From Pelagerythrobacter sp. (lineage in GTDB: Bacteria; Pseudomonadota; Alphaproteobacteria; Sphingomonadales; Sphingomonadaceae), in assembly GCF_041912895.1 (NCBI RefSeq), contig NZ_JAYSGI010000002.1, positions 521,339 to 585,338 of the forward strand: a stretch of DNA of 64,000 bases, given 5' to 3'. The notes under the pieces were generated by a model, which saw only the letters and a list, made by a program, of their open reading frames with translations, did no database searches and was not told where the DNA came from. The position numbers were made by a program, and so were the translations under genes. Positions within the stretch are counted from its first letter, which is position 1; each line of letters opens with the position of its first letter. Positions 15,299 to 55,294 of this stretch are shown piece after piece.

Positions 15299-15400
15299 GC
15301 GCTCCGTCCGGCGACGGCGCGGGGCAAACCGCCGCAACCGCGGGAGCTTTGCCGCACCTAGCCCGTCCTATCCATCTCGCCATTGAGAAGGATGGATACG

Positions 15401-15784
15401 ATGAACAGGATTCTCACGCTTTCGATCGCCCTCGCGCTCGGCGCCGGCGGCACGGCGGCGCACGCGCAGATCGTCGGCGGCACGACCGGTTCGGTCGAAG
15501 GCGCCGTCGGCCCCGTCACCGGCAATGTCGATACGACCGTGAATGCCGAAGCGGACGACCTCACCGGTCCGGTCAACGATACCACCACGCGGGTGCGCGA
15601 CACCGCCGACGAGACCGTCGACCGCACACGCGACACGACCGAAGAGGTGGTGGATCATGCCGATCACACCGTCGACGAAGCCGACGCCAGCGCCGATGTC
15701 GATGCGACGGTGGAAGCCGATGCCGACGACACGAGCGTCTCGGCCGACACCGAAGCCGAAGTGGATGCCGATCCCGAGGTCTGA
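15401..15784 (+). CDS. Secreted acidic low-complexity protein
   Basis: Signal peptide ending AHA-Q; mature part rich in D/T/A/V/E. Confidence 0.8.
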   Translation: MNRILTLSIALALGAGGTAAHAQIVGGTTGSVEGAVGPVTGNVDTTVNAEADDLTGPVNDTTTRVRDTADETVDRTRDTTEEVVDHADHTVDEADASADVDATVEADADDTSVSADTEAEVDADPEV

Positions 15785-15805
15785 CGTCGCATAGTGCGAA
15801 CCTGG

Positions 15806-15834
15806 AAAGGGCGGCGGGCGACTGCCGCCCTTTT
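15806..15834. terminator. Bidirectional intrinsic terminator
   Basis: AAAGGGCGGC...GCCGCCCTTTT between convergent genes. Confidence 0.8.
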
Positions 15835-16689
15835 CTATGCGCGCGCGGTCGCCTGCATCGCCTGTCGCCCGTCGCGCGCGAATGCCGCCAGTTCGATTGC
15901 GCCGTCCTTGCGCTTCATCGCGAGATGCAGCGGCTCCCCCGCGATCGCCGGGCTCATCCCGCGAAAGGCGAAGCTCGCGAGCGCGTTGTCGCCCAGTTCT
16001 TGCGCCGCCAGTTGCAGCAGCAGGCTGGCGGTCAGCGGCCCGTGGACGACGAGCCCGCGATAGCGCTCCACTTCCTCCGCATAGGGCGTGTCGTAATGGA
16101 TACGGTGAGTGTTGAAGGTCAGCGCCGAATAGCGGAACAGCACGCGCGGATCGGGCTGGACCACGCGGTGCGCATCCCATCCGGCGGGATCGAAGGCGCC
16201 TTCGTCCGACGGCGGGGGCGACAGCGGCGCGTTGGGCGCGGCGGCCTCGCGATAGACCAGCGTCTGCACCTCGCGCACCGCCGACACGCCGTCGGCGGCG
16301 GTTTCGTGCGCCACTTCGACGAAGACCATCGGGCCGCTGCGCCCCTCCTTCGCGGCGATCGAGGCGACGCGGGAAACGCGCTCGATCGCGGCGCCGACCG
16401 CGATGGGAGCGTGGAATTCGATCGCGCTGGAAGCCCACATCCGGCGCGCCAGCGGCACCGGTGGGAGGAAGCTGTCGGGGCTGTCGTCGCGCGCCGGATG
16501 CCCGTCCTCGCCCAGCGTGGCGGTCGGCGCGTCGGGGGTGCAGAGGCAGAAGTGGCTGCCCTGCGGCATCGCGGCGCCGGGTGCGGGCGGCGGCAGATCG
16601 AACGCGGCGCACCACCGCGCCGCGAGCGCAGGGTCGAGCCGATCCGCGCGGCGCTCCTCGCGCCCGATCCATGCCTGCCAGTCGCTCAT
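15835..16689 (-). CDS. Double hot-dog hydratase, mesaconyl-C4-CoA / itaconyl-CoA hydratase (Meh/Ich/HTD2)-like
   Basis: WQAWIGRE, LGEDGHP, LPPVPLARRMWA, LFRYSALTFNTHRIHYD..Y....E.Y.GLVVHGPL. Confidence 0.85.
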   Translation of the reverse strand: MSDWQAWIGREERRADRLDPALAARWCAAFDLPPPAPGAAMPQGSHFCLCTPDAPTATLGEDGHPARDDSPDSFLPPVPLARRMWASSAIEFHAPIAVGAAIERVSRVASIAAKEGRSGPMVFVEVAHETAADGVSAVREVQTLVYREAAAPNAPLSPPPSDEGAFDPAGWDAHRVVQPDPRVLFRYSALTFNTHRIHYDTPYAEEVERYRGLVVHGPLTASLLLQLAAQELGDNALASFAFRGMSPAIAGEPLHLAMKRKDGAIELAAFARDGRQAMQATARA

Positions 16690-16693
16690 TCCA

Positions 16694-16834
16694 TCCTCCC
16701 CCACCGGGGGAGGGGAACCACCCGCAGGGTGGTGGAGGGGCACGGCGATGTGATCCGGGCAGCAGATGTTCGGAGCAGCGGCCTGTGCCCCTCCACCATG
16801 CTATGCATGGTCCCCCTCCCCGTGCCGGGGAGGA
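16694..16834. repeat. ~141-bp palindromic element with two inverted CCTCCCC-hairpin arms
   Basis: Arms 16694-16743 and 16785-16834 are inverted; homologous copy at 53323-53464. Confidence 0.85.
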
Positions 16835-18052
16835 TCATGCCGCCCGCTCGAACAGTGCGGCGATGCCCTGGCCGCCGCCGATGCACATCGTCTCAAGCCC
16901 GTAGCGTACTTCGCGCCGGTGCATCTCGTGCGCCATGTCGGCGAGGATGCGCCCGCCCGTCGCGCCGATCGGGTGGCCGAGCGAGATGCCCGAGCCGTTG
17001 ACGTTGAGGATGTCGCGGCGGCTGTCGTCCGCGCTCCAGCCCCAGCCTTTCAGCACCGCGAGCACCTGCGGCGCGAACGCTTCGTTCAGTTCGACCAGGC
17101 CCACATCGTCCCAGCCCATGCCGGTGCGCGCGAGCAGCCGCTCCACCGCGGGCACGGGGCCGATGCCCATCCGGCTCGGGTCGCAGCCCGCCGCCGCGTA
17201 GCCGGTGAACCACAGCGAGGGAGCGAGGTCGAGTTCCTCCAGCTTGTCCTCCGCCACCACCAGGCACGCGGCAGCGGCGTCGTTCTGCTGGCTGGCGTTG
17301 CCCGCGGTGACGATGCCATTCTCCAGCGGGCGCAGCGCGCCGAGGCTCTCCATGCTCGCGTCCGGCCGGAAGCCCTCGTCGCGGTCGAACACCAGCGGGT
17401 CGCCGCGCCGCTGCGGCACCTCGAGCGGGACGAGCTGCGCGTCGAACCGCCCCGCCTCCCACGCGGCGGCGGCATTGCGGTGGCTGCGCACGGCGTATTC
17501 GTCGGCCTCCTCGCGCGTGATCCCGTAATCCTTCGCGAGGTTTTCGGCCGTCTCGATCATCCCGGTGATGACGCCGAACCGCTCGATCGGCTGGCTCATC
17601 AGCCGCCCGCGCGTCAGCCGGTCCCACAACTCGACGTCGCCCATCTTGGTGCCGCCGCGCAGGCTGGTGGTGTAATGCTCGACGTTGGACATGCTATCGC
17701 AGCCGCCCGCCACGACCACATCGGCATGGCCCGCCTCGATCATCATCGCCGCGTTGACGACCGATTGCAGCCCCGATCCGCAGCGCCGGTCGAGCTGGTA
17801 GCCGGGGACTTCCAGCGGCAGGCCCGCCGCGAGCCAGGCCCAGTGGCCGATCGCGGGCGCTTCCCCGCTGCCGTAGCCCTGGCTGAACACCACGTCGTCG
17901 ACGCGTTCGGGGTCGATCCCGCTGCGCTCGATCAGCGCCTTCAGGATCGCCGCGCCCAGATCGCCCGCGGTGAGCGGCGCGAGCGTGCCGAGGAAGCGCC
18001 CGACGGGCGTGCGCAAGGGGCTGACGATGGCAGCGCGGCGTTTGGCGGTCAT
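16835..18052 (-). CDS. Thiolase (acetyl-CoA C-acyltransferase)
   Basis: LDRRCGSGLQ, NEAFA, GSGISLGHPIGATG, ETMCIGGGQG. Confidence 0.95.
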   Translation of the reverse strand: MTAKRRAAIVSPLRTPVGRFLGTLAPLTAGDLGAAILKALIERSGIDPERVDDVVFSQGYGSGEAPAIGHWAWLAAGLPLEVPGYQLDRRCGSGLQSVVNAAMMIEAGHADVVVAGGCDSMSNVEHYTTSLRGGTKMGDVELWDRLTRGRLMSQPIERFGVITGMIETAENLAKDYGITREEADEYAVRSHRNAAAAWEAGRFDAQLVPLEVPQRRGDPLVFDRDEGFRPDASMESLGALRPLENGIVTAGNASQQNDAAAACLVVAEDKLEELDLAPSLWFTGYAAAGCDPSRMGIGPVPAVERLLARTGMGWDDVGLVELNEAFAPQVLAVLKGWGWSADDSRRDILNVNGSGISLGHPIGATGGRILADMAHEMHRREVRYGLETMCIGGGQGIAALFERAA

Positions 18053-19293
18053 GCTGGTCTCCTGAAACTGTCCTTGTCGCTCGCAGCGACCACGCCGCGA
18101 TCGATCAGTGCGGCAATTGCGCCCGACGCCAGCCCCAGTCGCTCGGCGAGCACTTCTTCGCTGTGCTGGCCGAGATAGGGCGCGGGCGCGGGATCGCCCG
18201 CCACGCGGCCGGGCAGGTTGGCGAAGCTGCGCGGGGCGGGGTATTCGAAGCCGCTCGGGTTGGCGGGCGAGGGGCCGAACAGCGGGTTGCCTGTCACCAG
18301 CGCCGGGTCGCCCGCCGCCTCGTGCATCGTGCGGTAGCGCTCGAACGTCGCGCCCGCCGCCGCCAGCCGCTCGGCCAGCACTGCGTAGTCCTCGCGTGCG
18401 GCTGCTTCCTGCACGATCGCGAACAGCGCCTCGCGATGGACGAAGCGGTGGTGATCGGACTGCGCGAATTCGACCCCGGCTTCGGCCTCCAGCGCGGCGA
18501 TCGGCTGCGCAATGTCGAGCGCGCCGACCATCGCGCGCCACTGCTTGCTGGTCAGCACCGCGATCATGAAGCGCTTGCCGTCGCGGCTGGTGAAATCGCG
18601 GCCCAGCGCACCCCAGATCGCGTTGCCGAGCCGTTCGCGGTCGTCCCCGCGATAGAGCATCTCGGCCATCGCGCCCGAGTTGGCCACCGTGCCCAGCATG
18701 ACGTCGCCCAGCGGCACGCGCACCTCGCTGCCCTCGCCGGTCGCGGCGCGGTGGTGCAGCGCGGCCAACAGCGCGAAGGCGCCATAGGCGCCGGTGATGA
18801 AATCCCACGCGGGCAGCACCTGGTTGACTGGCGGCGCGGTGTCCGCCGCCCATTCGTCAGGGCCGGTCATCAGCGGATAGCCGCTGGCCGCGTTGACGGT
18901 GAAGTCCATCGCCTGGCGCCCGTCGTGCCAGCCCATGATCCGCACCGAGACCATGTCGGGCCGCCCTTCGCTCACCGCCGCATGGGAGAGGAAGCTCTTC
19001 TCCGGCAGGTTGGTGACGAGCTGGCCGGTCGCGCGCGCCAGCTCGACGCACAGCTCGCGCCCCTCGCCGCCGCGCAGGTCGAGCGCGACCGATTTCTTCG
19101 CGCGGTTGAGATTCTCCCACGCAAGGCTGCGCCCTTCGGCGGTCTGCATGTAGCGGTCGTAATCCAACCCGCCGCCGATCTGGTCGACGCGAATGACCTC
19201 CGCGCCCATCTGCGCGCAATACAGCCCGGCGGTCGGCGAGGCGACGAAGCTCGACACCTCGACGAGCGAAAGGCCGCGGAGGAGATCGTACAT
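18049..19293 (-). CDS. Family III (CaiB/BaiF) CoA-transferase, Mct (2-methylfumaryl-CoA isomerase)-like
   Basis: VIRVDQIGGGLDY, VNQVLPAWDFITG, GALGRDFTSRDGKRFM; closely parallels Chloroflexus Mct as recalled. Confidence 0.85.
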   Translation of the reverse strand: MYDLLRGLSLVEVSSFVASPTAGLYCAQMGAEVIRVDQIGGGLDYDRYMQTAEGRSLAWENLNRAKKSVALDLRGGEGRELCVELARATGQLVTNLPEKSFLSHAAVSEGRPDMVSVRIMGWHDGRQAMDFTVNAASGYPLMTGPDEWAADTAPPVNQVLPAWDFITGAYGAFALLAALHHRAATGEGSEVRVPLGDVMLGTVANSGAMAEMLYRGDDRERLGNAIWGALGRDFTSRDGKRFMIAVLTSKQWRAMVGALDIAQPIAALEAEAGVEFAQSDHHRFVHREALFAIVQEAAAREDYAVLAERLAAAGATFERYRTMHEAAGDPALVTGNPLFGPSPANPSGFEYPAPRSFANLPGRVAGDPAPAPYLGQHSEEVLAERLGLASGAIAALIDRGVVAASDKDSFRRPA

Positions 19294-20469
19294 TCAGGCC
19301 TGCGCCGCGAAATCGCGCAGCATGTGCTTGGCGATCTGCAGCTGGAGGATCTGCGTCGTGCCTTCGTAGATGCGGTAGATGCGCGCATCGCGGAAAAAGC
19401 GCTCGGCATCGTATTCGGCGAGGTAGCCCGCGCCGCCGTAGATCTGCACCACGCGGTCGACCACGCGGCCGCACATCTCGGATGCGAAGACCTTGAACGC
19501 GGCGGCCTGCCGGATCGTGCTTTCGCCGCGATCGACCCGCGCGGCGACGTCGGCCATCATGCATTCGGCGGCGTAGATCTCGGTCTCGCTCTCGGCCAGC
19601 ATCTGCTGGATCAGCTGGAAGTTGGCGATCGGCTCGCCGAACGCCTTGCGCTCGGTGGCGTAGCGCAGTGCTGAATCGAGCGCGCGACGCGCATAGCCGG
19701 TCGATGCCGCGCCGACCGAGATGCGCCCGTTGTCGAGGCTCTTCATCGCGAACACGAAGCCCTTGCCGGTCTCGCCGCCCAGCAGCGCCTCGCCCGGCAC
19801 GTGGACGTCTTCCAGGATCACGTCGGCGATATGGCTGCCCGACTGGCCCATCTTCTCGTCCGGCGAACCCACGGTGACGCCCGGCGCGTCCATCGGCACG
19901 ATGAAGGCGGAGACGTGCGCGTTCTTGGGCAGGTTGTCCTTCTCGGTGCGCGCCATGATCAGCCCGACCCGCGCGTGCGGCGCGTTGGTGATGTAGCGTT
20001 TGGTGCCGTTGAGTATCCAGCCGTTCCCGCTGGGGTCGCGCCGCGCGGTGGTCGCCATCGCGGCGCTGTCACTGCCCGATCCCGGCTCGGTCAGGCCGAA
20101 ACAGGCGATCTCGCCCGCCGCGATCCGCGGCCACCATTCGGCCTTCTGCGCCTCGGTGCCGCCGTTCTTGATCGCCGAGTTGAACATGCCGACGTTGATC
20201 GAGAAGATCGAGCGATAGGCGGGCGCGGCGTAGGCCATCGTCTTGACCACGCGCGCATACTGGCTCGTGCTCAGCCCCGCGCCGTCGTAGTCCTCGGGTA
20301 CGGTCAGGCCGAACAGCCCCATGTCCTTCATCTCGGCCACGATCGCGTCGGGAATGCGGTCGGTCTCGATCACCTCGCGCTCGGCGGGGATCAGCCGTTC
20401 GCGCACGTAGCGTTCGAGCTGGTCGAGAAACTGTTCGAAAAGTTCGGGGTCCATGCCGGGTTCGGCCAT
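19294..20469 (-). CDS. Acyl-CoA dehydrogenase
   Basis: CFGLTEPGSGSD, LNGTKRYITNAP, GEPIANFQLIQ, RIYRIYEGTTQI; start 20469 or 20454. Confidence 0.95.
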   Translation of the reverse strand: MAEPGMDPELFEQFLDQLERYVRERLIPAEREVIETDRIPDAIVAEMKDMGLFGLTVPEDYDGAGLSTSQYARVVKTMAYAAPAYRSIFSINVGMFNSAIKNGGTEAQKAEWWPRIAAGEIACFGLTEPGSGSDSAAMATTARRDPSGNGWILNGTKRYITNAPHARVGLIMARTEKDNLPKNAHVSAFIVPMDAPGVTVGSPDEKMGQSGSHIADVILEDVHVPGEALLGGETGKGFVFAMKSLDNGRISVGAASTGYARRALDSALRYATERKAFGEPIANFQLIQQMLAESETEIYAAECMMADVAARVDRGESTIRQAAAFKVFASEMCGRVVDRVVQIYGGAGYLAEYDAERFFRDARIYRIYEGTTQILQLQIAKHMLRDFAAQA

Positions 20470-20496
20470 GCCTGTCGGTCCTCTCGTCGGGTCGGA

Positions 20497-20721
20497 TTAT
20501 GAGGCGGGAGGAGGGGCGTCGGGCGCTGTAGCCGGCTCGTCCTCCGCGGTGGTATCGCGGCCCATCGCTTCGGGCGGCAGGCGCCGCTGTTCGAGCATTT
20601 CGGCCGCTTCGTCGAGCGCCTTCGCCTCGCCTACCGTCACCCCGCCGGGGCCGGGTTCGTTGTCGGCAGGCTCGCACGCGGCGAGCAGGACAAGGGGGGC
20701 GAGCAGGGCGATACGGGTCAT
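20497..20721 (-). CDS. Small lipoprotein
   Basis: Lipobox LLAAC; GPGGVTVGEAKALDEAAEML. Confidence 0.8.
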   Translation of the reverse strand: MTRIALLAPLVLLAACEPADNEPGPGGVTVGEAKALDEAAEMLEQRRLPPEAMGRDTTAEDEPATAPDAPPPAS

Positions 20722-20753
20722 GGCGGGGCACCATAGCGCCGCGCGCACAAAGG

Positions 20754-20791
20754 AAAAGCGGGCGAATCGCCGTGCGACCGCCCGCTTCCCA
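20754..20791 (-). terminator. Intrinsic terminator of the 20832-21128 gene
   Basis: AAGCGGGCG...CGCCCGCTTTT on the minus strand. Confidence 0.7.
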
Positions 20792-20831
20792 AGCGTTTCT
20801 TTCGGCCCGCGAAGGGCCGGCGGACGATCGC

Positions 20832-21128
20832 CTACTCGGTCTCTTCCGAAGCGGTCGAGGCTTCGGCGGCGACATCGGCCGCGGCCGCGGCGGCGGCTTC
20901 ACCCGCGGCATCGGCGTCGGCGGCCGCGTTGTCGGCGGCGGTCGTGTCTTCGGCGGTCGGCGTGGTCACCGGCGCGGCGACCGGCTCGTCGGTGATCGGC
21001 GTCAGCGCCTCGTCGGCGGGCATTTCGACGGTGTCGGCCTCGGCATCGACCGAAGCGTCGTCGCTGCTGCCGCAGGCGGCGAGCGCCAGCGCGGCGACGG
21101 GAGCGAGAGCGAAAGCGAACTTCTTCAT
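20832..21128 (-). CDS. Acidic, disordered lipoprotein
   Basis: MKKFAFALAPVAALALAACG lipobox; A/D/E/T-rich tail; GGAG RBS. Confidence 0.85.
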   Translation of the reverse strand: MKKFAFALAPVAALALAACGSSDDASVDAEADTVEMPADEALTPITDEPVAAPVTTPTAEDTTAADNAAADADAAGEAAAAAAADVAAEASTASEETE

Positions 21129-21256
21129 CGGGGGTTCTCCGTGATTCGGGCGCCACATGGCGTGCGGCTCACTTAGCTCTGCCACATTTCAACCGCAATC
21201 TGCAAAAATGGCCCCGCCCCGTTCACCCCGCGTCCCGGCTATGCCATGGCCGTGGC

Positions 21257-23047
21257 ATGGCGACGATTTCGGAAGGCGACGAACGACTGGGCGCGGCGCG
21301 CGGCGAACTGCGCCGCCTGTTCGGGTTCGACGATTTTCGCGGGGTGCAGCCGCAAGTGGTGGCGCGGGTGTTGGCAGGCGAATCGACGCTGGCGGTGATG
21401 CCCACCGGCGCGGGCAAGTCGCTCACCTACCAGCTGCCCGCCGCGATGCTACCGGGCACCTGCGTGGTCGTCAGCCCGCTGATCGCGCTGATGCACGACC
21501 AGCTGCGCGCTGCGCGCGCCAACGGGATCGAGGCGGCGACGCTGACCAGCGTCGATGCCGACTGGCGCGAGACGCTCGACCGGTTCCGGTCCGGAACGCT
21601 CGACCTGCTCTACGTCGCGCCCGAACGCGCCAGCCAGCCGGGTTTCCGCGAACTGCTCGGCTCCGCGCCGCTCGCGCTGTTCGCGGTGGACGAGGCGCAT
21701 TGCGTGTCCGAATGGGGCCACGATTTCCGGCCAGACTACCGCCTGCTGCGCGGCCTGCTCGACGCGTTTCCGCAAGTGCCGCGCCTCGCGCTTACCGCCA
21801 CCGCCGACGCGCACACCCGCGCCGACATCCTGGAGCAGCTCGGCATTCCCGCGGACGGGCTGGTGCTCGCCGGGTTCGACCGGCCCAATATCCGCTACGC
21901 CATGCGCCACCGCGACAACCCGGTGCGCCAGATCGCCGCGCTGATGGACGAAGTGCCGGGGCCGGGCATCGTCTATGCCCCCACGCGCCGCAAGGTAGAG
22001 GATCTGGCGGACAAGCTGGGCGCGGCCACCGGGCGCGAGGTGCGGCCCTATCACGCCGGGCTGGACCCGGCGGTGCGCGGGGGCAACCAGGCGGCGTTCG
22101 TCAGCAGCGAGGACATGGTGATCGTCGCCACGGTCGCCTTCGGCATGGGGATCGACAAACCCGACGTGCGCTTCGTCGCCCATGCGGGCATCCCGAAGTC
22201 GATCGAGGGATATTACCAGGAAACCGGCCGCGCGGGGCGCGACGGCGATCCGGCGCGGGCGGTGATGCTGTGGGGCGCGGGCGATTTCGCCACGGCGCGC
22301 CAGCGATTGTCCGAAGTGCCGGAGAATCGCCGCACGGGCGAGCGCGCGCGGCTCGATGCGCTCGCCGGGCTGGTCGAGACCGCCGGCTGCCGCCGCGCCG
22401 TGCTGCTGCGCCATTTCGGCGAAGACCCGCCCGCGCAGTGCGGCAATTGCGACAACTGCCTGTCCCCGCCCGGCGTCACCGACGCGACCGAACTCGCGCG
22501 CAAGCTGCTCTCTGCCGCGTACCGCACCGGGCAGAGCTTCGGCTTCGGGCACTTGCAGAAGGTGCTGACCGGGGCGGAGGATGATCGCGTGCGCCAGCGC
22601 GGGCACGACCGGCTGTCGGTGTTCGGCATCGTCGAGGGTGACGAGGCGCGCCTGCTCCAGCCGCTGAGCCGGGCGTTGCAGGCGCGCGGCGCGCTGGTCG
22701 CGAACGAGCACGGCGGGCTCGCGCTCGGCGGCGATGCCCGCGCGATCCTCAAGGGCGAGCAGGCGGTGGCGATCGTGGTCCCGCCCCGTTCCGAGCGCAG
22801 GCGGCGGCGCGATGCCAGCCCCAACCCGGTCGGCGATCCGCTGTTCGAGGCGCTGCGCGACCTGCGGCGCGAACTGGCGAGCGAGGCCGGCCTGCCGCCC
22901 TACGTGATCTTCCACGACGCCACGCTGCGGGAGATGGCCGCGCGCCGTCCCGCCTCGCTCGCCGAACTGGGCGCGATCGGCGGTGTCGGCGCGAAGAAGC
23001 TGGACGCCTACGGCGACCGGTTCCTTTCGGTTATTCGGGCGGCTTGA
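21257..23047 (+). CDS. recQ: DNA helicase RecQ
   Basis: MPTGAGKS, VDEAHCVSEWGHDFRPDY, YYQETGRAGRDG, Zn-binding Cys, HRDC domain PPYVIFHDATL. Confidence 0.96.
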   Translation: MATISEGDERLGAARGELRRLFGFDDFRGVQPQVVARVLAGESTLAVMPTGAGKSLTYQLPAAMLPGTCVVVSPLIALMHDQLRAARANGIEAATLTSVDADWRETLDRFRSGTLDLLYVAPERASQPGFRELLGSAPLALFAVDEAHCVSEWGHDFRPDYRLLRGLLDAFPQVPRLALTATADAHTRADILEQLGIPADGLVLAGFDRPNIRYAMRHRDNPVRQIAALMDEVPGPGIVYAPTRRKVEDLADKLGAATGREVRPYHAGLDPAVRGGNQAAFVSSEDMVIVATVAFGMGIDKPDVRFVAHAGIPKSIEGYYQETGRAGRDGDPARAVMLWGAGDFATARQRLSEVPENRRTGERARLDALAGLVETAGCRRAVLLRHFGEDPPAQCGNCDNCLSPPGVTDATELARKLLSAAYRTGQSFGFGHLQKVLTGAEDDRVRQRGHDRLSVFGIVEGDEARLLQPLSRALQARGALVANEHGGLALGGDARAILKGEQAVAIVVPPRSERRRRRDASPNPVGDPLFEALRDLRRELASEAGLPPYVIFHDATLREMAARRPASLAELGAIGGVGAKKLDAYGDRFLSVIRAA

Positions 23048-52646: not shown

Positions 52647-55294
52647 CAGCGGAGGATCCACTCGCCGAATACAATCGCAAGCGCGATTTCAAGACGACCC
52701 CCGAACCATCCGGCTCGCCTGCGGGCAAGCGCCGCCCGAAATCCGGGACGGGGCGGGGCGACTTGTTCATCGTCCAGAAGCACGATGCGAGCCGGCTGCA
52801 CTGGGACTTGCGGCTGGAGGCCGACGGCGTGCTCAAGTCGTGGGCCGTCACGAAGGGCCCCTCGGCCGATCCCGAAGTGAAGCGGCTCGCGGTGCGGACC
52901 GAGGATCACCCCATGTCCTACGCCGAGTTCGAGGGCACGATCCCCGCAAAGGAATACGGCGGCGGCACGGTGATGCTGTGGGATCGCGGAACGTGGGCGC
53001 CGGTCGAAGGCAAGAGCTGGAAGGATATCGAAAAGGGACATCTGCACTTTACGCTCGATGGCGAGCGGATGAAGGGCGAATGGCTGCTGGTGCGGATGAA
53101 GCCGCGCAAGGGCGAAAAGCGCGAGAACTGGCTGCTGCGCAAGGTCGGCGACGACCACGCCGAGGAAGGCGACGCGCTGGTCGAACGCGAACTGACCAGC
53201 GTGCTGACCGGCCGTGCGATGGCCGAGATCGCGGCCGACAAGCGCGGCGAACATTCACTCGAAGGCAAGAAGGGTACGGCCTTCGCGAAGGAGATGGCGA
53301 AGGCGGGCGTGCACAACGCCAGCCTCCCCGGTACGGGGAGGGGGACCAGCGAAGCTGGTGGAGGGGCACGTGCAGGGATCGAGACTTCGGCTGGCCGGAG
53401 CAAGGCCGGCGCCCCTCCACCCCGCCGCTCCGCGGCGCGGTCCCCCTCCCCGAAGCGGGGAGGATCAAAGCCACCCAAATTCCGCAAGCTGCAGCTCGCC
53501 ACGCTGGTCGACGCCGTGCCCACCGGCAACCGCTGGATGCACGAGATCAAGTTCGACGGCTATCGCGCGCTCGTCGCCGCCGCGGGGGCCGAGGTGCGCG
53601 TCTACACCCGCAGCGGCAAGGACTGGTCGGATAAGTTCGCCCCGCTCGCCCGCGCCGTGGCCGCGCTCGACCTGCCGCCGTGCCTGATCGACGGCGAAAT
53701 CGTCGCTTACGATGCCAAGGGCAATCCCGATTTCTCCAGCCTGCAACAGGTGCTGAAGCGCGGCCACGGCGCGCAGGGCGAGGACGATGCCTTCGCTTTC
53801 CACGCCTTCGACCTGCTCGAAGTGGATGGGAAGAGCCTCGCCAGGCTGCCCAATATCGAGCGCAAGGAACGGCTCGAGGCTTTGCTGGCCGATGCCGAGC
53901 CGCCGATCCATGTCGCCGACCACGTGATCGGCGCGGGCGAGAAGCTCTACCGCGCGATGTGCGATGCGGGGCAGGAAGGGATCATCGCCAAGGCGATCGA
54001 CGCGCCCTATCACGGCAGCCGCACGAAGAGCTGGGTGAAGGTCAAGTGCACCCGGCGGCAGGAGTTCGTGGTGATCGGGTGGAAGGCTTCGAAAGCGAAG
54101 GGCCGCCCGTTCGCCTCGCTCCTGCTGGCGCAGCACGAGGATGGCGCGCTCGCCTACAAGGGCAATGTCGGCACCGGGTTCAATCACGACACGATGGCCG
54201 ATCTCTCCGAGAGGATGGCGAAGCTCGAGCGCAAGACGCCGCCCGCCGAGGTCGACAAGGCTTCGTCGCGCGGCGTCACTTGGCTCACGCCCAAGCTGGT
54301 CGCCGAGATCGCCTTCGCCGAGTTCACGGCGGACGGCAACGTGCGCCACGCCAGCTTCCTCGGCCTGCGCGGCGACAAGGAGGCGAGCGCCGTGACCCCC
54401 GAAAAGCCCGCAGCCGCGCCCGAGAGCGATGGCGACGACGTGGCGATCTCCAGCCGCGATCGGGTCATCTTCCCCGAAAGCGGCCAGACCAAGGGGGAAC
54501 TGGCCGATTATTACGCAGCCGTCGCGCCGCTGATGCTCCCCTTCGCCGCGCAGCGCCCGATCAGCCTTGTGCGCTGTCCGCAGGGCCGGGCGAAGAAATG
54601 CTTCTTCCAGAAGCACGACAGCGGCTCGTTCGGGCCGCACGTCCACCACGTGCCGATCACGGAGAAGGGCGGCGGGACCGAGGACTACCTCTATGTCGAG
54701 GATGCCGCGGGCCTGCTCGCCTGCGTCCAGATGGGCACGATCGAGTTCCACGGCTGGGCCGCTCGCAGCGGCGACGTGGAAAAGCCCGACCGCATGATCT
54801 TCGATCTCGACCCCGACGAAGGCCTCGACTTCGGCGACGTGAAGCGAGCGGCGAGCGACATCCGCCGCAAGCTCGCCGATCTCGGCCTCGCCAGCTTCGC
54901 GATGCTGTCGGGCGGCAAGGGCGTCCATGTCGTCGTGCCGCTGGCGCCGGGGCACTCATGGGACGCGCACAAGGATTTTGCCAAGCGCTTCGCCGAGGCG
55001 CTGAGCATGGCCGAACCCGATCGCTTCGTCGCGACGATGAGCAAGGCCAAGCGCAAGGGGAAGATCTTCGTCGACTGGCTCCGCAACCAGCGCGGCAGCA
55101 CCGCCGTGGTGCCCTATTCGGCGCGTGCCCGCGAAGGCGCGCCGGTCGCGGTGCCGATCGCCTGGGCCGAGCTGAAAGGCTTCGCCGACGCGCACCCGTT
55201 CTCGATCTCGGATGCCAAGAAGCTCCTCACGCGCGCCGAGGGCAAGGCGCTCGCCGGATGGGGTTTCGCCGAACAGCGCTTGCCCGACCTCTGA
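52643..55294 (+). CDS. ligD: NHEJ DNA ligase D (phosphoesterase-ligase-polymerase)
   Basis: VQKHDASRLHWDLRLE, HEIKFDGYR, WVKVKC, DRMIFDLDP, SGGKGVHV. Confidence 0.96.
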   Translation: MTAEDPLAEYNRKRDFKTTPEPSGSPAGKRRPKSGTGRGDLFIVQKHDASRLHWDLRLEADGVLKSWAVTKGPSADPEVKRLAVRTEDHPMSYAEFEGTIPAKEYGGGTVMLWDRGTWAPVEGKSWKDIEKGHLHFTLDGERMKGEWLLVRMKPRKGEKRENWLLRKVGDDHAEEGDALVERELTSVLTGRAMAEIAADKRGEHSLEGKKGTAFAKEMAKAGVHNASLPGTGRGTSEAGGGARAGIETSAGRSKAGAPPPRRSAARSPSPKRGGSKPPKFRKLQLATLVDAVPTGNRWMHEIKFDGYRALVAAAGAEVRVYTRSGKDWSDKFAPLARAVAALDLPPCLIDGEIVAYDAKGNPDFSSLQQVLKRGHGAQGEDDAFAFHAFDLLEVDGKSLARLPNIERKERLEALLADAEPPIHVADHVIGAGEKLYRAMCDAGQEGIIAKAIDAPYHGSRTKSWVKVKCTRRQEFVVIGWKASKAKGRPFASLLLAQHEDGALAYKGNVGTGFNHDTMADLSERMAKLERKTPPAEVDKASSRGVTWLTPKLVAEIAFAEFTADGNVRHASFLGLRGDKEASAVTPEKPAAAPESDGDDVAISSRDRVIFPESGQTKGELADYYAAVAPLMLPFAAQRPISLVRCPQGRAKKCFFQKHDSGSFGPHVHHVPITEKGGGTEDYLYVEDAAGLLACVQMGTIEFHGWAARSGDVEKPDRMIFDLDPDEGLDFGDVKRAASDIRRKLADLGLASFAMLSGGKGVHVVVPLAPGHSWDAHKDFAKRFAEALSMAEPDRFVATMSKAKRKGKIFVDWLRNQRGSTAVVPYSARAREGAPVAVPIAWAELKGFADAHPFSISDAKKLLTRAEGKALAGWGFAEQRLPDL
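53323..53464. repeat. ~142-bp palindromic element inserted in frame in ligD
   Basis: Homolog of 16694-16834; read as SLPGTGRGTSEAGGGA...PPPRRSAARSPSPKRGGS. Confidence 0.85.

Follow-up and report, generated by a model that had tools for sequence, protein, structure and literature searches.

In a 64,000-nt stretch of the genome of Pelagerythrobacter sp. (hereafter the window), four minus-strand open reading frames encode an acyl-CoA dehydrogenase (ACAD1), a CoA-transferase, a thiolase and a hydratase. We give about an even chance to the reading that this operon encodes the final steps of a beta-oxidation-type route, one for short, methyl-branched dicarboxylyl-CoA esters, which would feed methylsuccinyl-, mesaconyl- and citramalyl-CoA. 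The methyl branching of these substrates is probable. The operon is an undescribed catabolic variant assembled from known enzyme families. An earlier note on this DNA knew of no described pathway that pairs a thiolase with Mct and Meh in a heterotroph, and our search of the literature likewise found no published description of one. The features of the locus are the following:

20832..21128, minus strand: second small acidic lipoprotein gene, with the sequence MKKFAFALAPVAALALAAC, syntenic and upstream of the operon
20497..20721, minus strand: small conserved lipoprotein gene, with the lipobox LLAAC and the motif PGPGGVTVGEAKALDEAAEMLE
19294..20469, minus strand: ACAD1, acyl-CoA dehydrogenase, 391 aa, with the Pfam Acyl-CoA_dh N, M and C domains
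18049..19293, minus strand: Mct-family (family III) CoA-transferase, 414 aa, PF02515 at 175 bits
16835..18052, minus strand: thiolase of the degradative type, 405 aa, Thiolase_N and Thiolase_C
16693..16835, no strand assigned: palindromic dispersed repeat of 143 bp, MITE/REP-like, in the thiolase-hydratase spacer
15835..16689, minus strand: double hot-dog hydratase of the Ich/Meh/HTD2 family, 284 aa from the ATG at 16689, FAS1_DH_region and MaoC

The four co-oriented genes of the earlier note were all recovered, and so were the junctions by which the first three abut or overlap: the TGA of ACAD1 is followed without any gap by the ATG of the transferase, and the transferase and thiolase genes share an ATGA. 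These three genes are translationally coupled. The 145-nt gap between thiolase and hydratase, a spacing of 0-20 nt in relatives, is occupied by the 143-bp repeat, whose 51-nt inverted arms are 78% complementary and of which the genome holds about ten or more copies, including one at about 53323-53465 of the window. This repeat is an insertion into the spacer. The reading frame of the hydratase is open up to a GTG at 16743, and the alignments of its homologues begin at the ATG at 16689. The 20497..20721 lipoprotein gene lies 27 nt upstream of ACAD1 and may be co-transcribed with the operon; both small lipoprotein genes have syntenic homologues at two related loci (L057 and L058), and at the second of these the stop of the 20497..20721 homologue overlaps the ACAD start. 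The motifs that had been quoted are found in the translations (IGGGLDY, VNQVLPAWD, GRDFTSRDGKR and LFRYSALTFNTHRIHYD).

The order ACAD1-CoAT-THL(-HYD), for dehydrogenase, transferase, thiolase and hydratase, recurs in the 80 closest loci of a genome-contig search, so chance does not account for it, and the operon is conserved in Erythrobacteraceae and Novosphingobium. Many Erythrobacteraceae carry the four-gene core only, and some Tsuneonella are missing the adjacent Ich-like hydratase. In sister genera, the operon also encodes an MFE-2-type dehydrogenase, an MFE-2 hydratase, a true Mcd and/or an enzyme of the PA0879 type, which is a (RS)-methylsuccinyl-C4-CoA dehydrogenase (PMC12290011). Their operons read SDR-ACAD1-CoAT-THL-Mcd-HYD or LysR<>SDR-ACAD1-CoAT-THL-PA0879-type, and the fullest, from one sampled genome (G715), reads SDR-ACAD1-CoAT-THL-Mcd-HYD-MFE-2 hydratase-PA0879-type. 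The SDR is of the MFE-2 type in Novosphingobium and other genera, as it is in G715; the window operon has its ACAD, hydratase and thiolase, with no SDR and no second hydratase. What follows the thiolase gene in sister sphingomonads is a gene for a PA0879-type enzyme and/or for a genuine Mcd, which scores 588 bits to 6es9, the Mcd of the ethylmalonyl-CoA pathway (PMC5798300), and keeps all three of its carboxylate-binding Arg. In other Alphaproteobacteria, Mct-like genes adjoin Mcd or Meh-like genes. Among 121 genomes of the family, Mcd or a PA0879-type enzyme (called at E<=1e-120) is present in 25/36 transferase-positive genomes vs 13/85 transferase-negative ones, an odds ratio of 12.6 (p 1e-8) that is uncorrected for phylogeny. 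The other 11 of the 36 have neither at this threshold, so that either the C5 module is not universal or ACAD1 can substitute. These sister-genus operons support the idea, already put forward in the earlier note, of a thiolysis that yields methylsuccinyl-CoA, followed by mesaconyl- and citramalyl-CoA.

The transferase had been matched by its motifs to Chloroflexus Mct; the family is supported, strict membership in Mct is not. The protein is about 45% identical to Chloroflexus Mct over its full length, and in a PDB search the Mct structures 8apq/7xkg come out at E 8e-82, far ahead of the nearest other family III enzyme at 2e-20; against TIGR04253, it reaches 293 bits, below the equivalog cut-off of 725 (runner-up family, 90 bits). 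In Mct, Asp165 is catalytic, Arg47 binds the carboxylate, Leu43 constricts the mouth of the site, and Tyr136 is one of two residues that co-ordinate the free carboxylate of mesaconyl-CoA (PMC9813914). Alignment to 8apq gives D164 for the catalytic Asp, with R47 and L43 retained; all three are invariant among 81 close orthologues, and there is no GGGG sequence, i.e. no Gly-rich loop. The window protein has Phe131 at the position of Tyr136, and 81/81 close orthologues share this Phe, vs a Tyr in Chloroflexus Mct and in 18/19 other alphaproteobacterial homologues; the distant sphingomonad homologues that were checked have Tyr in 10/12 cases and Phe in 2/12. In the tree, the phylogenetic check that had been proposed, the transferase is nested within the Mct clade, apart from other family III transferases, and the Phe131 clade is monophyletic with a support of 100/99. 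By alignment and tree, then, the transferase is an Mct-family enzyme of a derived sphingomonad Phe131 subclade, whose substrate or binding mode may differ from that of Mct. The genomic setting differs as well, since the window gene belongs to a catabolic operon of a heterotroph and has a thiolase and an ACAD as partners, whereas Mct accompanies mcl, mch and meh of the autotrophic 3-hydroxypropionate bi-cycle.

The two other partners are more readily placed. The thiolase reaches 659 bits against NCBIfam NF004853 PRK06205 (cut-off 551), and among PDB entries 4zrc/5byv match it best, at 397 bits; 4-methyl-3-oxoadipyl-CoA is a plausible substrate. The hydratase carries the motif LFRYSALTFNxHRIHYD that had suggested an itaconyl-CoA hydratase, and this likeness holds: residues 22-275 match the P. 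aeruginosa enzyme (8khg/8huc) at E 1.5e-53, and identity to Pseudomonas itaconyl-CoA hydratases is 42-45% (42% for P. citronellolis Ich). From these matches, we class it as Ich/Meh-like.

ACAD1 was the enzyme proposed to turn methylsuccinyl-CoA into mesaconyl-C1-CoA, and it is here that we depart from the earlier note. ACAD1 is SCAD-like overall, with a catalytic Glu369, and short-chain ACADs are its closest solved structures (SCAD, 272 bits; Mcd 6es9, 198 bits). It has neither the N-terminal extension of Mcd (about 170 aa) nor the Ala285/Phe287 pocket, and Arg252, Arg376 and Arg421 of Mcd align with N92, S210 and A255. The missing extension and three Arg led us to reject Mcd as its identity, and an identity of only 30% to the PA0879 type (P. 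citronellolis orthologue) led us to reject a methylsuccinyl-C4-CoA dehydrogenase of that type. What ACAD1 does carry is Arg86, in the motif [YF]RS..SIN.GM, which is invariant in 70/70 orthologues and missing from the other ACAD paralogues aligned. It aligns with the helix-E Arg of GcdH, in the 'GYRS' motif of the genome's own GcdH, and this Arg (human Arg94, Desulfococcus Arg87) binds the distal carboxylate of the glutaryl group (PMC5798300). The overall identity between ACAD1 and GcdH is low, and Arg86 is, judging from the alignment, a feature common to both and not a sign of orthology. An Arg at this carboxylate-binding position makes a longer dicarboxylyl-CoA the probable substrate of ACAD1.

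A linear pathway, in which ACAD1 would make mesaconyl-C1-CoA, the transferase mesaconyl-C4-CoA and the hydratase citramalyl-CoA, still draws on the carboxylate-type Arg of ACAD1 and on the four-gene core that stands alone in many Erythrobacteraceae, the 11 of 36 genomes above being without another recognisable methylsuccinyl-CoA dehydrogenase. We find it quite unlikely given the residues and domains that ACAD1 lacks and its distance from the PA0879 type; moreover, it leaves the substrate of the thiolase without a producing enzyme. In the fuller operons, ACAD1 stands alongside Mcd and/or PA0879-type enzymes, that is, dedicated methylsuccinyl-CoA dehydrogenases, which argues for a different role of ACAD1.

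The nearness of ACAD1 to short-chain ACADs, like the MFE-2-type SDR and hydratase of relatives, would also suit an (R)-specific beta-oxidation, resembling the peroxisomal MFE-2/AMACR type, of monocarboxylic acyl-CoAs that are short or carry a 2-methyl branch. This reading would make the family III protein an activating transferase or a racemase, and the family does include alpha-methylacyl-CoA racemase. It is very unlikely: the transferase branches within the Mct clade, no racemase structure matched it in the PDB search at E<=1e-3, its Arg47 and the Arg86 of ACAD1 indicate a free carboxylate, and Mcd or PA0879-type enzymes are co-localised with the operon in relatives.

The remaining partners of a dicarboxylate route were searched for in the genome. 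A PA0879-type ACAD, 64% identical to the characterised type, is encoded at C1:1326463-1327605, unlinked to the operon. The lyase, which had been expected away from the operon, is a single CitE-like gene at C1:171512-172384, on a contig other than that of the operon; such a lyase occurs in 92/121 family genomes with or without the operon, and so lends no specific support to the pathway. The known Pseudomonas/Cupriavidus itaconate-methylsuccinate cluster comprises Ich (PA0878), the methylsuccinyl-C4-CoA dehydrogenase PA0879, an MmgE/PrpD isomerase, Ict and Ccl (PMC12290011). Our genome shares with it the homologous hydratase, the PA0879-type ACAD, a lyase 34% identical to that of the cluster and the proposed ending, from mesaconyl-C4-CoA through citramalyl-CoA to pyruvate and acetyl-CoA. 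It differs in having no Ict orthologue (best match 27-32% identity) and no counterpart of the PrpD-type isomerase, in an operon ACAD that is not of the PA0879 type, in the thiolase and Mct-type transferase that stand instead, and in its unlinked lyase and PA0879-type genes. The Novosphingobium-type operons, which unite thiolase, SDR, Mcd, Mct-like transferase and Meh-like hydratase, could evoke the ethylmalonyl-CoA pathway. However, crotonyl-CoA carboxylase/reductase (Ccr) was not found in this genome (best score 63 bits, cut-off 379), nor in 12 sphingomonad genomes in which the operon is accompanied by Mcd or a PA0879-type enzyme, and neither the window nor the rest of this genome has an Mcd. 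The absence of Ccr effectively refutes such a role, and it gives the Mcd of relatives, with its conserved substrate residues, a catabolic role there.

From the families assigned, the residue patterns, the conservation of the operon and the co-localisations, we infer the substrates, the order of steps and the intramolecular transfer of the methyl-branched dicarboxylate route as follows. ACAD1 would dehydrogenate a C6-C7 dicarboxylyl-CoA, e.g. 3-methyladipyl-C6-CoA, with Arg86 holding the distal carboxylate. Hydration and oxidation of the 3-hydroxyacyl-CoA would follow, through enzymes encoded outside the operon in this genome. The thiolase would then release acetyl-CoA and methylsuccinyl-CoA, with CoA on the carboxyl adjacent to the methyl group (the C1 ester), and the Mct-family transferase would shift CoA intramolecularly to the other carboxyl, acting on methylsuccinyl-CoA here and on mesaconyl-CoA where Mcd is present. 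The unlinked PA0879-type dehydrogenase would form mesaconyl-C4-CoA, the Ich/Meh-like hydratase (S)-citramalyl-CoA, and the lone CitE-like lyase pyruvate and acetyl-CoA.

Such a turning of the molecule has a precedent in anaerobic naphthalene degradation, where thiolysis leaves CoA on the wrong carboxyl and the intramolecular ThnP moves it before an ACAD acts (PMC11659651). ThnP/ThnO, and IaaL of auxin degradation, share the logic of thiolase, intramolecular CoA shift and ACAD, but ThnP, from anaerobes, belongs to family I (Cat1-type), has an alicyclic substrate, and shows no sequence relationship to the window transferase. The benzylsuccinate (bbs) operon and peroxisomal MFE-2 beta-oxidation are alike in acting on a substituted dicarboxylate with a family III transferase, ACAD, hydratase, SDR and thiolase, the SDR and hydratase of relatives being (R)-specific MFE-2 types. 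The enzyme subfamilies differ, the C5 module (Mcd or PA0879-type plus Ich-like hydratase) is extra here, and the window is without an SDR. This same bbs/dca logic would accommodate an unbranched dicarboxylate beta-oxidation (adipate, glutarate, pimelate), in which an intermolecular transferase, e.g. succinyl-CoA:dicarboxylate, would recycle the thiolase product. The set of transferase, ACAD, hydratase and thiolase (with the SDR of relatives) fits it, as does the GcdH-like Arg of ACAD1, and the change of Tyr136 to Phe could mean a different acid. We nevertheless consider it unlikely, since the transferase retains Arg47 (instead of the Gly loop) and Leu43, by which Mct presumably closes off its site, the operons of relatives recruited two independent kinds of methylsuccinyl-CoA dehydrogenase, and the hydratase belongs with Ich/Meh, not with plain crotonases.

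Returning to methyl-branched dicarboxylates, we put forward tentatively that the operon forms the last part of an aerobic pathway, so far undescribed, for those derived from isoprenoids, in which thiolysis would be followed by a turning round of the molecule through the intramolecular Mct-family transferase, and that the autotrophic Mct was recruited from such enzymes. A candidate source would be the 3-methyladipate that remains once phytanate or phytol has undergone omega- and beta-oxidation, the turned methylsuccinyl- or mesaconyl-CoA then being completed to pyruvate and acetyl-CoA. If this is true, the Mct of the 3-hydroxypropionate bi-cycle would have been recruited from widespread catabolic enzymes, and metagenomic matches to Mct (KEGG/JGI '2-methylfumaryl-CoA isomerase') would mostly signal heterotrophic catabolism and not CO2 fixation. 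In this marine-type sphingomonad, a relative of the CO2-fixation enzyme Mct is likely used for catabolism.

The four genes under study, encoding an acyl-CoA dehydrogenase (ACAD1), a family III CoA-transferase (CoAT), a thiolase (THL) and a double hot-dog hydratase (HYD), are open reading frames at exactly the positions claimed in the earlier note; their families were confirmed by Pfam and NCBIfam, and every motif cited there was found in the translations. They belong to a 2.85 Mb genome (67% G+C) of the Erythrobacteraceae lineage, in which the operon lies between housekeeping genes, argB, yggT and marC at one end and recQ at the other.

Features of the operon and its surroundings (window positions)
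15835-16689, minus strand: HYD, double hot-dog hydratase (ORF and Pfam/NCBIfam)
16693-16835: palindromic repeat of 143 bp with 51-nt arms, filling the 145-nt spacer between THL and HYD
16835-18052, minus strand: THL, thiolase (ORF and Pfam/NCBIfam)
18049-19293, minus strand: CoAT, family III CoA-transferase (ORF and Pfam/NCBIfam)
19294-20469, minus strand: ACAD1, acyl-CoA dehydrogenase (ORF and Pfam/NCBIfam)
20497-20721, minus strand: small lipoprotein gene just upstream of the operon, with lipobox LLAAC and conserved motif PGPGGVTVGEAKALDEAAEMLE
20832-21128, minus strand: small lipoprotein gene upstream of the operon, with an acidic Ala/Asp-rich product

CoAT starts directly after the ACAD1 stop (TGAATG), and CoAT and THL overlap by 4 nt (ATGA). 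The repeat that follows THL recurs across the genome, with about ten or more copies, including one at about 53323-53465 of the window. Because THL and HYD are nearly contiguous in relatives (0-20 nt), it is an insertion, and it may affect coupling or mRNA stability. Neither of the upstream lipoproteins has a Pfam match, and the synteny of both genes is kept in Tsuneonella and Novosphingobium; in T. dongtanensis, the homologue of the first one overlaps the ACAD start. A scan of positions 15300-21300 for sigma-70-like promoters returned no site, such a scan being uninformative for an alphaproteobacterium of 69% G+C.

CoAT matches the solved structures of Mct, the mesaconyl-CoA C1-C4 transferase of the Chloroflexus 3-hydroxypropionate bi-cycle (8apq and 7xkg), at E 8e-82, and the next family III enzyme follows at E 2e-20. 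Among NCBIfam models, the Mct equivalog scores highest, with 293 bits, far under the cut-off of 725 bits. In the Mct structure, Asp165 is catalytic, Arg47 and Tyr136 grip the free carboxylate, Arg47 also fills the position of the Gly-rich loop of intermolecular transferases, and Leu43 constricts the mouth of the site (PMC9813914). In our alignment, Leu43, Arg47 and Asp164 are retained in CoAT, and Tyr136 is replaced by Phe131. The closest homologues come from Pelagerythrobacter and Tsuneonella (85-89% identity). The tree places the sphingomonad transferases and one sister sequence, from a different alphaproteobacterial family, in a single clade (100/100). Here the Phe131 proteins make up a derived, monophyletic subclade (100/99) that lies nested within transferases with Tyr131/Pro43; in other sphingomonad genera, the majority of these Tyr131/Pro43 transferases hold the corresponding slot of the operon. 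The Chloroflexus Mct is itself nested among Tyr-type proteins of other Alphaproteobacteria. Two genomes of the window's GTDB genus (G680 and G784) carry a lone Tyr-type Mct-like gene (loci L146 and L147, 52-53% identity). Since the ACAD1-THL operon is absent from both and the Phe-type operon of the window is nearest to that of Pelagerythrobacter (88%), the data suggest that the operon was gained, lost or replaced within the genus.

Among the partners, HYD matches the itaconyl-CoA hydratase of P. aeruginosa at E 1.5e-53, and THL passes the cut-off of the PRK06205 subfamily, its nearest structure being 4zrc/5byv. ACAD1 is best matched by the structures of short-chain acyl-CoA dehydrogenases (272 bits), while the (2S)-methylsuccinyl-CoA dehydrogenase Mcd (6es9) reaches 198 bits. 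The three carboxylate-binding arginines of Mcd are Asn92, Ser210 and Ala255 in ACAD1, and identity to the P. citronellolis enzyme of the PA0879 type, the Pseudomonas methylsuccinyl-C4-CoA dehydrogenase, is 30%. By its sequence, ACAD1 thus falls into neither known type of methylsuccinyl-CoA dehydrogenase. This disfavours the exact scheme of the earlier note, in which the operon's own ACAD fulfilled that role, and which may still apply to the minimal four-gene operons. ACAD1 has an Arg86, located in a [YF]RS..SIN.GM motif. The glutaryl-CoA dehydrogenase encoded in the same genome has its GYRS-motif Arg at the aligned position, and Arg86 has no counterpart in the other ACAD paralogues of the alignment. 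This glutaryl-CoA dehydrogenase aligns without gaps to human GCDH, the Arg falling at SEQRES position 93 (1siq) or 95 (1sir), which corresponds to Arg94. The helix-E Arg of glutaryl-CoA dehydrogenase makes a salt bridge with glutaryl-CoA's distal carboxylate (PMC5798300). Because Arg86 aligns with this carboxylate-binding residue and is invariant in 70/70 ACAD1 orthologues, we infer that ACAD1 would oxidise a dicarboxylyl-CoA longer than C4, as the entry substrate of a beta-oxidation round.

The operons of relatives were compared through the 80 closest loci of a species-representative genome collection. All 80 belong to Erythrobacteraceae or Novosphingobium and have operon partners adjoining the transferase; the order ACAD1-CoAT-THL-HYD is found in 31 of them, and further loci are broken off at contig ends. 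Some Tsuneonella have no hydratase adjoining the operon. In Novosphingobium, the order is SDR-ACAD1-CoAT-THL-ACAD2-HYD, where the SDR, whose profile matches are to generic SDR models only, is presumably an MFE-2-type (3R)-hydroxyacyl-CoA dehydrogenase. ACAD2 is a genuine Mcd (588 bits to 6es9, N-terminal extension present), which retains Arg252, Arg376, Arg421, Ala285, Phe287 and Glu535 (residue roles in PMC5798300). In another Novosphingobium set, a PA0879-like gene overlaps the thiolase stop, and a LysR regulator is divergently oriented; a 2025 study showed that PA0879 is an (RS)-methylsuccinyl-C4-CoA dehydrogenase (PMC12290011). The idea that the Tyr-to-Phe change in the transferase tracks the type of dehydrogenase was rejected, as the F-type and the Y-type both co-occur with Mcd and with PA0879-type genes. 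The fullest operon, that of family genome G715, reads SDR-ACAD1-CoAT-THL-Mcd-HYD-MFE-2 hydratase 2-PA0879-type. This layout splits into a beta-oxidation round (ACAD1, MFE-2 hydratase, SDR and THL) and a C5 module (Mcd and/or PA0879-type enzyme, CoAT and the Ich-like HYD, related to itaconyl-CoA hydratase). A possible alternative is the beta-oxidation of unbranched dicarboxylates with an intermolecular transferase, with which the enzyme set and Arg86 are compatible, but which fits neither the recruited methylsuccinyl-CoA dehydrogenases, of which there are two kinds, nor the retained "sealed site" residues of CoAT. A monocarboxylate or racemase reading is the least likely of all. As to a variant of the ethylmalonyl-CoA pathway, it is excluded because the crotonyl-CoA carboxylase/reductase Ccr is absent from this genome and from 12 operon-bearing relatives.

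In the preferred reading, a beta-oxidation round that feeds a C5 module, the rest of the route would be encoded elsewhere in the genome. We found no Mcd there (best match 32% identity), and a PA0879-type ACAD at 1326463-1327605 of contig C1 shares 64% identity with its P. citronellolis counterpart. The canonical itaconate cluster used as reference was found via a PaIch fragment from a PDB alignment, then in P. citronellolis. The CitE/Mcl lyase that the earlier note had placed outside the operon has a candidate in a single HpcH/CitE-type lyase, whose best model is RipC/Ccl, below cut-off, with 34% identity to P. citronellolis Ccl; an orthologue of Ict, another gene of the itaconate cluster, is absent from this genome. 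A search with NCBIfam RipC_Ccl at E<=1e-80 in 401 genomes of the phylum gave zero matches, controls included, so that the threshold or model was ill-chosen and the result uninformative. With the PA0879-type ACAD and the lyase, the steps that lead from methylsuccinyl-CoA to pyruvate and acetyl-CoA can therefore be put together in full. Their completion would need CoA on the C4 carboxyl, whereas thiolytic cleavage of an ester of the 4-methyl-3-oxoadipyl type would place it on C1, beside the methyl branch; a transferase of the Mct type would solve this placement by moving CoA from C1 to C4. From this chemistry and from what is known of phytanate omega-oxidation, the substrates are perhaps 3-methyladipate-type acids, which may come from isoprenoid breakdown. 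A PhyH gene (phytanoyl-CoA dioxygenase family) lies at 1295-2140 of locus L152 (genome G679), about 3 kb upstream of the six-gene operon of one sphingomonad; its presence fits an isoprenoid-acid link, though it may be a coincidence. Two other CoA-ester loci lie on contig C1, outside the window. At 1201380-1203556, a family III CoA-transferase adjoins an HMG-CoA-lyase-family gene (NF004283, 275 bits), a pair that resembles the succinyl-CoA:D-citramalate CoA-transferase and (R)-citramalyl-CoA lyase of Chloroflexus, and that might give C5/C6 hydroxy-dicarboxylates a different exit. At 1309749-1314232, an ACAD, a family III protein, a putative crotonase-type hydratase and a 436-aa thiolase form a second cluster, sequence-unrelated to the studied operon.

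An Mct-like gene (E<=1e-60) is present in 36/301 alphaproteobacterial genomes (~12%). Outside the sphingomonads, these genes adjoin Mcd (2 loci) or hydratases resembling the mesaconyl-C4-CoA hydratase Meh (3 loci), and none has a thiolase beside it. In a sphingomonad family sample of 121 genomes from 112 genera, 36 (~30%) have the transferase gene, which marks the operon; 29 have a PA0879-type enzyme and 18 have Mcd. Mcd and/or the PA0879 type occur in 25/36 transferase-positive versus 13/85 transferase-negative genomes (odds ratio 12.6, Fisher p 1e-8 over the 121 genomes, uncorrected for shared ancestry); the main caveat is that 11 of the 36 positives have neither dehydrogenase. A CitE-like lyase is present in 92/121 genomes, so its co-occurrence is uninformative on the operon.

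No account of this operon turned up in the searchable literature on 2-methylfumaryl-CoA isomerase, on Mct with thiolase, or on 3-methyladipate with methylsuccinate; each protein is of a known family, and the combination is, as far as can be told, new. Anaerobic naphthalene degradation is, to our knowledge, the only described case in which thiolysis is followed by intramolecular CoA transfer and this in turn by dehydrogenation, and the operon would be the second. In the former, this logic was shown biochemically for ThnP/ThnO; ThnP is a family I transferase whereas CoAT belongs to family III, the pathway logic being alike (PMC11659651). The operon enzymes may also serve engineered routes among C5-C7 dicarboxylates. 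Sphingomonad transferases are labelled "2-methylfumaryl-CoA isomerase" by JGI, and genes with this label are tallied in metagenome carbon-fixation surveys, an annotation problem through which heterotrophic homologues would inflate the signals of the 3-hydroxypropionate bi-cycle. Mct has hitherto been treated as a marker of an autotrophic cycle of CO2 fixation; its family appears here as an enzyme of catabolism that is common among heterotrophic Alphaproteobacteria. The operon would fill a gap in the metabolism of branched C5 dicarboxylates: for methylsuccinyl-CoA dehydrogenases in organisms lacking the ethylmalonyl-CoA pathway, it would provide both a source and a role in catabolism.
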